From the NCBI RefSeq assembly GCF_003334335.1, contig NZ_QOWQ01000217.1: DNA of 334 nucleotides. One strand, 5' to 3'. The DNA is from Escherichia coli (GTDB taxonomy: Bacteria; Pseudomonadota; Gammaproteobacteria; Enterobacterales; Enterobacteriaceae). Numbering within the stretch: position 1 is the stretch's first letter; the number at the start of each line of letters is the position of its first letter. The notes under the pieces are model-generated. The model had not been told where the DNA came from, did no database searches, and was given only the letters and a program-made list of their open reading frames with translations. The position numbers were made by a program, and so were the translations under genes. Of this stretch, positions 1 through 334 are shown one piece after another.

Positions 1-334
1 GTCCGGTGGCCATCACGCCCTATACCCTGATGCAGGCCATTGCGGCGGAAGGTGATGTCACCACACCGGTGGTGGTGAAGCCGTCGGATGGAGAAGGCAC
101 AGTTATCAGCACCACCAGCGAACCGGAGTATTACTTTGTTGTTGTTCTGGCGGGGCAGTCAAACTCAATGTCTTTTGGTGAAGGGCTGCCGCTGCCGGAT
201 ACATATGACCGTCCGGACCCGCGTATTAAACAGCTGGCGCGTCGCAGTACGGTGACGCCGGGTGGTGTCGCCTGTAAATATAACGACATCATTCCGGCGG
301 ACCATTGTCTGCATGATGTACAGGACATGAGCCG
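1..334 (+). CDS. nanS: Internal fragment (5' and 3' ends outside the window) of an SGNH-hydrolase / sialate O-acetylesterase (SASA)-family protein, most likely a NanS-like 9-O-acetyl-N-acetylneuraminate esterase, possibly the prophage-type (NanS-p) form with an N-terminal extension
   Basis: Seen in sequence: the frame starting at nt 3 is open to nt 334 with no stop codon (first full codon 3-5, last full codon 330-332). Translation: PVAITPYTLMQAIAAEGDVTTPVVVKPSDGEGTVISTTSEPEYYFVVVLAGQSNSMSFGEGLPLPDTYDRPDPRIKQLARRSTVTPGGVACKYNDIIPADHCLHDVQDMS. Both other + frames hit stops within the first ~55 nt (tga at 28-30 in frame 1; tga at 53-55 in frame 2). Established knowledge: hydrophobic beta-strand followed by GQSN(A/S)M is the block-I nucleophile motif of SASA/SGNH esterases. 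The GEGLPLPD...DPRIKQLARRSTVTPGG...C.YNDIIPADHCLHDVQDMS stretch matches my recollection of E. coli NanS/YjhS-family proteins; this is recalled, not searched. Codon usage (ctg, ccg, gcg, cgt, ggt favoured) looks enterobacterial. The strand and frame are well supported; the specific NanS assignment is less certain. Confidence 0.8.
51..128 (+). other. Low-complexity Thr/Val/Pro/Ser-rich segment (GDVTTPVVVKPSDGEGTVISTTSEPE), putative interdomain linker upstream of the esterase core
   Basis: Seen in sequence: codons 17-42 of the open frame are dominated by T, V, P, S, G, E and D with no long hydrophobic run, directly preceding the first beta-strand of the esterase domain. Inference: this composition is typical of flexible linkers between domains and suggests another domain is encoded upstream of the window. 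Confidence 0.4.
153..164 (+). other. GQSN active-site motif (SGNH block I); putative catalytic nucleophile Ser encoded by tca at 159-161
   Basis: Seen in sequence: ggg cag tca aac at 153-164 encodes G-Q-S-N, immediately after the hydrophobic run YYFVVVLA (codons at 129-152). Established knowledge: in SASA/SGNH esterases the Ser of this motif is the nucleophile. The downstream catalytic Asp/His block lies beyond the window and cannot be confirmed. Confidence 0.7.

Follow-up and report, generated by a model that had tools for sequence, protein, structure and literature searches.

Here, we identify a 334-nt stretch of Escherichia coli DNA (hereafter, the window) as a fragment of a NanS-p gene in the late operon of a lambdoid phage, an assignment that is close to certain. 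More specifically, the window very probably represents codons 35 to 144 of the gene for a 662-aa NanS-p-type sialate O-acetylesterase of the stx-negative lambdoid phage PhiR5_1, or of an almost identical E. coli prophage. The finding of NanS-p is already known in that the sequence is in GenBank and that biochemical and structural work on the family, as well as a catalogue of its domain diversity, exists. The original prediction, made from the letters alone, interpreted the window as part of a prophage NanS-p-type gene with an N-terminal extension, and the DUF1737 domain, the SASA core and the phage flanks were all found. The window contains the following features, with positions in nt:

1 to 334, plus strand: internal segment (codons 35-144 of 662, frame 3) of a nanS-p-type gene, with two additional bases at each end.
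3 to 50, plus strand: C-terminal third of the DUF1737 domain, residues 35-50, based on the Pfam match to residues 3-50 and an AF2 domain model.
6 to 14, 15 to 23 and 24 to 47, plus strand: predicted strand beta2, hairpin tip Thr39-Pro40-Tyr41 and strand beta3 of this domain, respectively, based on the AF2 model.
21 to 23, plus strand: codon of Tyr41 at the hairpin tip, at the alignment position of the capsid "tooth" Tyr42 of phi24B gp84.
30 to 32, plus strand: in-frame ATG (codon 10), which is the internal Met44 and not the start, as judged from the upstream start with a Shine-Dalgarno sequence and the conserved DUF1737 residues before Met44.
54 to 122, plus strand: interdomain linker, residues 52-74, DVTTPVVVKPSDGEGTVISTTSE, bounded by the last residue of the Pfam DUF1737 match (50) and the first residue with NanS homology (75), with a pLDDT of 53-57 after residue 50.
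123 to 334, plus strand: first 70 residues (75-144) of the SGNH/SASA catalytic domain, based on BLASTP to NanS, PDB 3PT5 and Pfam SASA.
153 to 164, plus strand: SGNH block I, GQSN, residues 85-88, by direct reading and alignment with NanS.

Several lines of evidence support this identification. First, frame 3 of the window (nt 3-332) consists of 110 sense codons and no stops, and forward frames 1 and 2 contain four and seven stops, respectively. By simple arithmetic, the chance of a stop-free run over 110 codons is ~0.005, i.e., (61/64)^110. The GQSN motif had been placed at codon 51 of this open frame, and it is indeed encoded there (GGG CAG TCA AAC, codons 51-54); similarly, the frame that appeared open at the left edge of the window continues in the PhiR5_1 record for 34 further codons up to an ATG. 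Short ORFs in the other frames and on the minus strand of the window were discounted as lying inside a coding frame under selection and lacking support. Scans of the window matched no Rfam elements and revealed no promoter- or terminator-like sites. Second, the window matches positions 18946-19279 of Escherichia phage PhiR5_1 (PV340545.1) with 100% identity and a prophage of E. coli NCTC9112 with 99.4% identity. Close matches to the window are present in 1,020 of 5,426 complete E. coli genomes (about one in five), with a median of three copies and a maximum of seven, and in 302 phage records, which are mostly those of Stx-converting phages.

Third, the complete gene can be delineated in the PhiR5_1 record, where positions with the prefix L001 refer to the 18-kb stretch that we analysed around it:

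L001 8901-10889 (PV340545.1 18846-20834), plus strand: nanS-p-type CDS of 1,989 nt, encoding 662 aa, from the PhiR5_1 record.

Its ATG at L001 8901, 100 nt upstream of the window, is the first start codon after a stop and is preceded by a strong ribosome-binding site (GGGAGGattc; GGGAGGattcATG). Accordingly numbered, window codon 1 is residue 35 of the 662-aa protein, and the phrog_143 profile matches this protein over its full length with 1012 bits. An ORF beginning at the internal ATG at nt 30-32 would have argued against an N-terminal extension; instead, the ORF runs upstream past the window, and translation from the internal ATG was rejected on the grounds that the start lies 34 codons upstream of the window behind a strong Shine-Dalgarno sequence and that the residues upstream of Met44 belong to a conserved Pfam domain. 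In GenBank, the complete three-domain gene is labelled only as [quoted passage not shown] and RefSeq names prophage copies inconsistently as "SASA family carbohydrate esterase" or "DUF6645 domain-containing protein." A search of NCBIfam with the 662-aa protein assigned no family, and a literature search found no paper on PhiR5_1.

Fourth, the domain architecture is that of NanS-p proteins. A profile search with the full-length protein, as originally proposed as a check, returned both Pfam DUF1737 (PF08410; residues 3-50, E 2.3e-15) and Pfam SASA (residues 81-276, E 4.2e-9). It also returned the C-terminal lectin-like domain DUF6645 (residues 511-619, E 1.6e-32). Thus, the predicted order of DUF1737, linker and SASA stands, and the lectin-like domain, for which PDB 6YP6 is the structural counterpart, has to be added to it. 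PDB 3PT5 (NanS/YjhS) matches residues 74-394 (E 1.6e-114), and PDB 6YP6, the crystallised C-terminal domain of phi24B NanS-p, matches residues 448-656 (E 3.8e-48). In the full-length AF2 model, the C-terminal domain is a beta-sandwich with a pLDDT of about 85-90; residues 1-72 are not modelled confidently (pLDDT 33-64) because the alignment is shallow. The interdomain linker between DUF1737 and the catalytic domain is hypervariable, with 23 distinct versions, 8-23 aa in length, in 92 CDS. The second interdomain linker (residues 405-444; L001 about 10113-10232) is predicted to be disordered (pLDDT about 23), is ~30 residues longer than in 933W and does not contain "SSP," a motif put forward in the phi24B preprint as a site of autoproteolysis. 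No hydrophobic stretch resembling a signal peptide was seen at the N-terminus of the 662-aa protein.

The catalytic residues are retained. The SGNH blocks GQSN, WMQGE and R-x-x-H are all present in the PhiR5_1 protein, and GQSN is invariant in 22 homologues. Ser87 (nt 159-161), which aligns with Ser19 of NanS, is the predicted nucleophile. [quoted passage not shown] Block IV lies outside the window at residues 370-373 and reads RKTH, with the His kept; for NanS-p of Stx phages, the literature describes RSSH or RASH in this block, with RPTH as the single exception. The description of the esterase core as located in the middle of the ORF is correct within the window; in the whole protein, by contrast, GQSN falls in the N-terminal seventh of the 662 residues.

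A catalytic core homologous to NanS could also be expected if the window were the chromosomal nanS (yjhS) gene of the nanCMS operon and the open frame upstream of it were untranslated read-through. Chromosomal nanS, fetched for comparison, belongs to a nanC-nanM-nanS operon and encodes a protein of 326 aa that begins with MNAIISPDYYYVLTVAGQSN and has GQSN at residue 17; the short leader originally attributed to it was, therefore, correct. In BLASTP, residues 75-394 of the phage protein align with residues 7-322 of NanS with 54% identity (E 3e-125), and the two proteins share the SGNH core, the conserved Ser and His and, presumably, the substrate 9-O-acetyl sialic acid (3PT5). However, within part of the core, the two genes are only about 67% identical at the DNA level, NanS has 16 residues ahead of GQSN and lacks DUF1737, and the residues upstream of the core in the window form a significant Pfam domain that is under selection. 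Moreover, the 100% match of the window is to a phage record with phage genes on both flanks. Instead of a single-domain protein of ~326 aa encoded by nanCMS, we found a three-domain protein of 662 aa in a phage context. The phage match and flanks, the DUF1737 domain and the gene layout of NanS together refute the chromosomal reading, to which we assign practically no probability. The phage protein exceeds NanS by 68 residues at the N-terminus and by about 270 at the C-terminus; NanS has a single domain, with neither DUF1737 nor the C-terminal domain, and it is encoded in a sialic-acid-inducible operon rather than a phage late operon.

PhiR5_1 was deposited as a complete phage genome with E. 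coli C as the host. Upstream of nanS-p it has cI, cro, cII, O, P, ren, ninB, ninE and rusA and then the Q antiterminator; downstream of nanS-p follow genes for DUF1378 and DUF826 proteins, holin S, lysozyme R, Rz, head genes of the lambda type (Nu1-A-W-B-C/Nu3-D-E) and a long tail. The elements closest to nanS-p are:

L001 7524-7904: antiterminator Q (phrog_79, E 2.5e-48).
L001 8120-8317, plus strand: 65-aa ORF between Q and STnc100 (phrog_331, E 2.4e-37).
L001 8472-8677, plus strand: STnc100 RNA element (Rfam RF02076), about 220 nt upstream of the nanS-p start.
L001 11615-11830: holin S, followed by lysozyme R, Rz and terminase.

The flanks had been expected to carry phage genes, and they do so on both sides, with Q upstream and S, R, Rz and the lambda-type terminase and head genes downstream. 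The gene had also been placed between the toxin genes and the lysis cassette of an Stx phage. Its position before the lysis cassette of a lambdoid phage holds. However, tblastn with the A and B subunits of Stx1 and Stx2 against positions 9946-50981 of the PhiR5_1 record returned nothing below E 0.1, which rules out an Stx-phage context for PhiR5_1, and the gene sits between Q and S. Stx phages have Q, nanS-p and holin in the same order. Between Q and nanS-p of PhiR5_1 are several terminator-like hairpins, an arrangement that would fit Q-dependent late expression. ARAGORN detected no tRNA genes in the 18-kb stretch around nanS-p.

The region between Q and nanS-p has features of its own. The 65-aa ORF is followed by a terminator-like hairpin (8304-8321) and lies roughly at the position of stx in Stx phages. 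A full-length STnc100 (143-208 bits) is located just upstream of nanS-p in every phage scanned (L002 8466-8671, L003 2589-2794, L004 5590-5795, L005 8211-8426, L011 16711-16925 and L013 17601-17814, in addition to PhiR5_1), and looks like a conserved part of the nanS-p module. In Stx phages, it is located between stxB and nanS-p with a terminator-like hairpin at its end. Directly after STnc100, the opposite strand encodes the anti-sRNAs AsxR (933W type) or AgvB (Stx1 phage), with these matches:

L003 2796-2848, L004 5797-5849 and L013 17816-17875, minus strand: AsxR/AgvB.

At the same place in PhiR5_1, AsxR and AgvB gave no match at E <= 0.1, and only a minus-strand terminator-like hairpin (L001 8706..8685) is present.

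The PhiR5_1 protein shares the layout of DUF1737, SGNH/SASA and a lectin-like jelly-roll with NanS-p proteins of Stx and non-Stx phages (933W L0105/z1466; phi24B vb_24B_21, i.e., gp84; and those of EDL933 and O104:H4). The same three-domain layout has been described for NanS-p, with DUF1737 at residues 3-53 in 933W (PMC10462455). Also shared are the SGNH blocks, nearly identical residues 1-34 and the locus after Q and an STnc100-type RNA element and before DUF1378, DUF826 and holin. By contrast, the PhiR5_1 protein is only 58-59% identical overall to that of 933W, and it differs from known NanS-p proteins in block IV (RKTH), the longer second linker and a divergent C-terminal domain. The DUF1737 hairpin loop has the shorter ITPYT instead of the STAGYGAE of the 933W/phi24B type, and the putative cleavage motif "SISSP" of phi24B is absent. 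The phage itself differs from the Stx phages that carry NanS-p by having no stx, a lambda-type head and a long tail.

Expression of nanS-p of stx2a phages is induced by mitomycin C (PMC10462455), and NanS-p of EDL933 and O104:H4 are esterases with activity on Neu5,9Ac2 as well as on mucin, and they support growth (PMC8065619). By analogy with these homologues, nanS-p of PhiR5_1 would be transcribed together with the late genes after Q antitermination upon prophage induction, and the protein would exit the cell at phage lysis. It would then de-O-acetylate Neu5,9Ac2 and the sialic acids of mucin, in that way rendering sialic acids usable by E. coli, and the C-terminal lectin-like domain may aid in glycan binding. 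The N-terminal extension may serve as a conserved docking or oligomerisation module that is tethered to the enzyme by the linker. Among these steps, we infer on good grounds that the protein would de-O-acetylate sialic acid, be produced late and be released at lysis.

To model the N-terminal domain, residues 1-62 were built on an alignment of diverse DUF1737 sequences. Residues 1-50 of this AF2 domain model have a pLDDT of 79-94 and form a strand (5-11), a helix (14-26) and two further strands (36-38 and 42-49). This predicted fold matches the description of the phi24B domain in the preprint. A Foldseek search of the PDB with the model gave nothing significant (best E 0.28), and, therefore, no solved decoration protein was usable as a comparator; in BFVD, the same model matched uncharacterised DUF1737 proteins and nothing else. 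Across the family, conservation is seen in the helix and in the strand that follows the loop; the loop is hypervariable and does not contain an aromatic residue in all members. In variant A, the loop type of the window, codons 35-53 have a pN/pS of 0.019 and codons 1-34 one of 0.088 (with pS of 0.3-0.4), compared to 0.14-0.31 for the catalytic part. Thus, purifying selection on variant A is stronger in the DUF1737 part than in the enzyme core.

DUF1737 also occurs outside the three-domain arrangement. Phage vB_EcoS-640R1 has a stand-alone variant-A DUF1737 ORF of 62-67 aa (L016 19986-20189) before the holin, where nanS-p normally sits, and this ORF appears to be a deletion derivative that retains only the N-terminal domain. 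PHROGs lists a separate 67-aa family of stand-alone DUF1737 proteins (phrog_2036). A P2-family phage from E. coli ST131 has a DUF1737-SASA gene after the lysis genes (L015 20001-21464) with a fourth loop variant (…EPGTPWYLMQAMV…); therefore, the architecture extends beyond lambdoid phages. Metagenomes contain distant stand-alone DUF1737 genes (L101 266-1471, L103 2-548 and L104 840-6243) in non-phage neighbourhoods, which are cellular for two of these genes. In two short contigs, the DUF1737 gene is directly downstream of a gene for a DnaJ-domain protein, and in a 196-kb contig its neighbours are transporter and peptidase genes, and a DnaJ gene is found at a distance of 4 kb.

The truncated derivatives, i.e., the stand-alone ORF of 640R1 and a copy of only 349 aa in another locus (L084), would be in line with a decaying prophage remnant in which the open frame of the window is a functionless pseudogene fragment. 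However, the PhiR5_1 ORF is intact, with 662 aa, all three domains and all catalytic motifs; the DUF1737 and catalytic parts are both under purifying selection; and the genome was deposited as that of a complete phage. We, therefore, consider decay highly improbable and an intact nanS-p gene the appropriate reading.

The function of the N-terminal domain is less clear-cut. In phi24B, the NanS-p homologue gp84 is present in purified virions, and its residues 2-57 have been resolved as a hexamer inserted in the hexon at the centre of each face of the T=9 capsid (bioRxiv 10.64898/2026.04.10.717836). The hexamer is anchored by the hairpin "tooth" Tyr42, and the resolved chain ends near Gly54-Ser57, beside the SISSP motif (bioRxiv 10.64898/2026.04.10.717836). 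The window had been described as lying in a moron-type accessory gene. That it lies in a phage gene is correct; the moron label is questionable and possibly wrong because gp84 is found in the virion and DUF1737 of phi24B anchors the esterase on capsid hexons, as described in the 2026 preprint. A virion mass-spectrometry paper on related phages contains no report on NanS. The domains of PhiR5_1 and phi24B share the Pfam family, a predicted fold of one helix and three antiparallel strands, an aromatic residue at the predicted hairpin tip and a flexible linker, and Tyr41 of PhiR5_1 is by alignment the putative equivalent of the Tyr42 "tooth." However, the loop of PhiR5_1 lacks three residues relative to the AGYGAE loop of phi24B and 933W and has another sequence, and the partner capsids are unrelated: the head genes of PhiR5_1 encode E and D of the lambda type, whereas phi24B has a T=9 shell of gp69.

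Loop variants and capsid types provide further information on this question. In the alignment of homologues, residues 1-34 are nearly invariant and variants diverge from residue 35, which is where the window starts. The loop variants span residues 35-48, which correspond to nt 3-44 of the window. Loop variant A, that of the window, is SPVAITPYTLMQAI; variant B, the 933W and phi24B type, is S(A/P)(L/I)IS(T/N)AGYGAEFIQ; and variant C is GGPFSSYTDDGAALIQ. The head module could be typed by terminase and major capsid protein (MCP) in 43 of the 99 loci fetched (L001-L099), and BLASTP between the capsid types revealed no similarity. The loci are distributed as follows:

Variant A: lambda E heads (13 loci), a 645-aa fusion (15), another HK97 type (1) and a ClpP-scaffold-MCP fusion (1).
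Variant B: phi24B-type capsid with a podovirus MCP in 5/5 loci.
Variant C: ClpP-scaffold-MCP fusion in 8/8 loci.

Fisher tests gave p about 1e-6 for variant B and p about 6e-8 for variant C, with relatedness and linkage ignored. Four alleles share all of their first 95 residues but are distributed over two different head types.

One possibility is that DUF1737 hexamers plug the hexon centres of lambda-type gpE via Thr39-Pro40-Tyr41 and thereby display the esterase on the head, in which case the gene would be a virion gene rather than a moron of benefit to the lysogen. The precedent of phi24B gp84 as a virion protein with DUF1737 in hexon pores, the same predicted fold with an aromatic residue at the hairpin tip, and the position of the gene, which is always in the late operon and adjoins structural genes, are consistent with such a decoration. 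The very strong constraint on the domain (pN/pS 0.02-0.09) and the capsid-specific loops of variants B and C, each strictly tied to one capsid type, argue for a protein partner. However, the associations of B and C may simply reflect linkage within related phages, and distant stand-alone DUF1737 genes in cellular rather than phage contexts speak against a docking role. Variant A is found with four capsid families that have no sequence similarity, the identical 95-residue alleles occur with two head types, the hairpin loop is three residues shorter than that of phi24B and has another sequence, and binding in phi24B is limited to the hexon of the flat T=9 face on the three-fold axis. From the known geometry of capsids, lambda-type T=7 heads have no flat hexon on a three-fold axis, and we count this against docking. 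Altogether, the pairing of identical variant-A alleles with unrelated capsids and the restriction of the phi24B site to T=9 argue against a simple transfer of the phi24B mechanism. We, therefore, regard decoration of lambda-type heads as possible but doubtful, and attachment in the manner of phi24B in the lambda-type PhiR5_1 as rather unlikely.

Alternatively, DUF1737 of the type in the window (…SPVAITPYTLMQAIAAEGDV) could be a promiscuous binder of hexon pores that docks NanS-p on several unrelated capsids of the HK97 fold, including lambda-type T=7 heads, those with the 645-aa fusion and others. Display of the esterase on virions would then be general in lambdoid phages, whether or not these are Stx-converting, and would serve movement or retention of the phage in mucus beyond feeding the lysogen. 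A promiscuous binder would fit the pN/pS of about 0.02, the spread of variant A across head types and the strict pairing of variants B and C; nonetheless, we consider this scenario unlikely.

NanS-p enzymes have already been linked to the foraging of mucin sialic acids by EHEC. If DUF1737 docks on lambda-type capsids, nanS-p would be reclassified from a "moron" that benefits the lysogen to a virion component that acts on mucus. Such a reclassification, if true, would change the understanding of how Stx phages spread in the gut.
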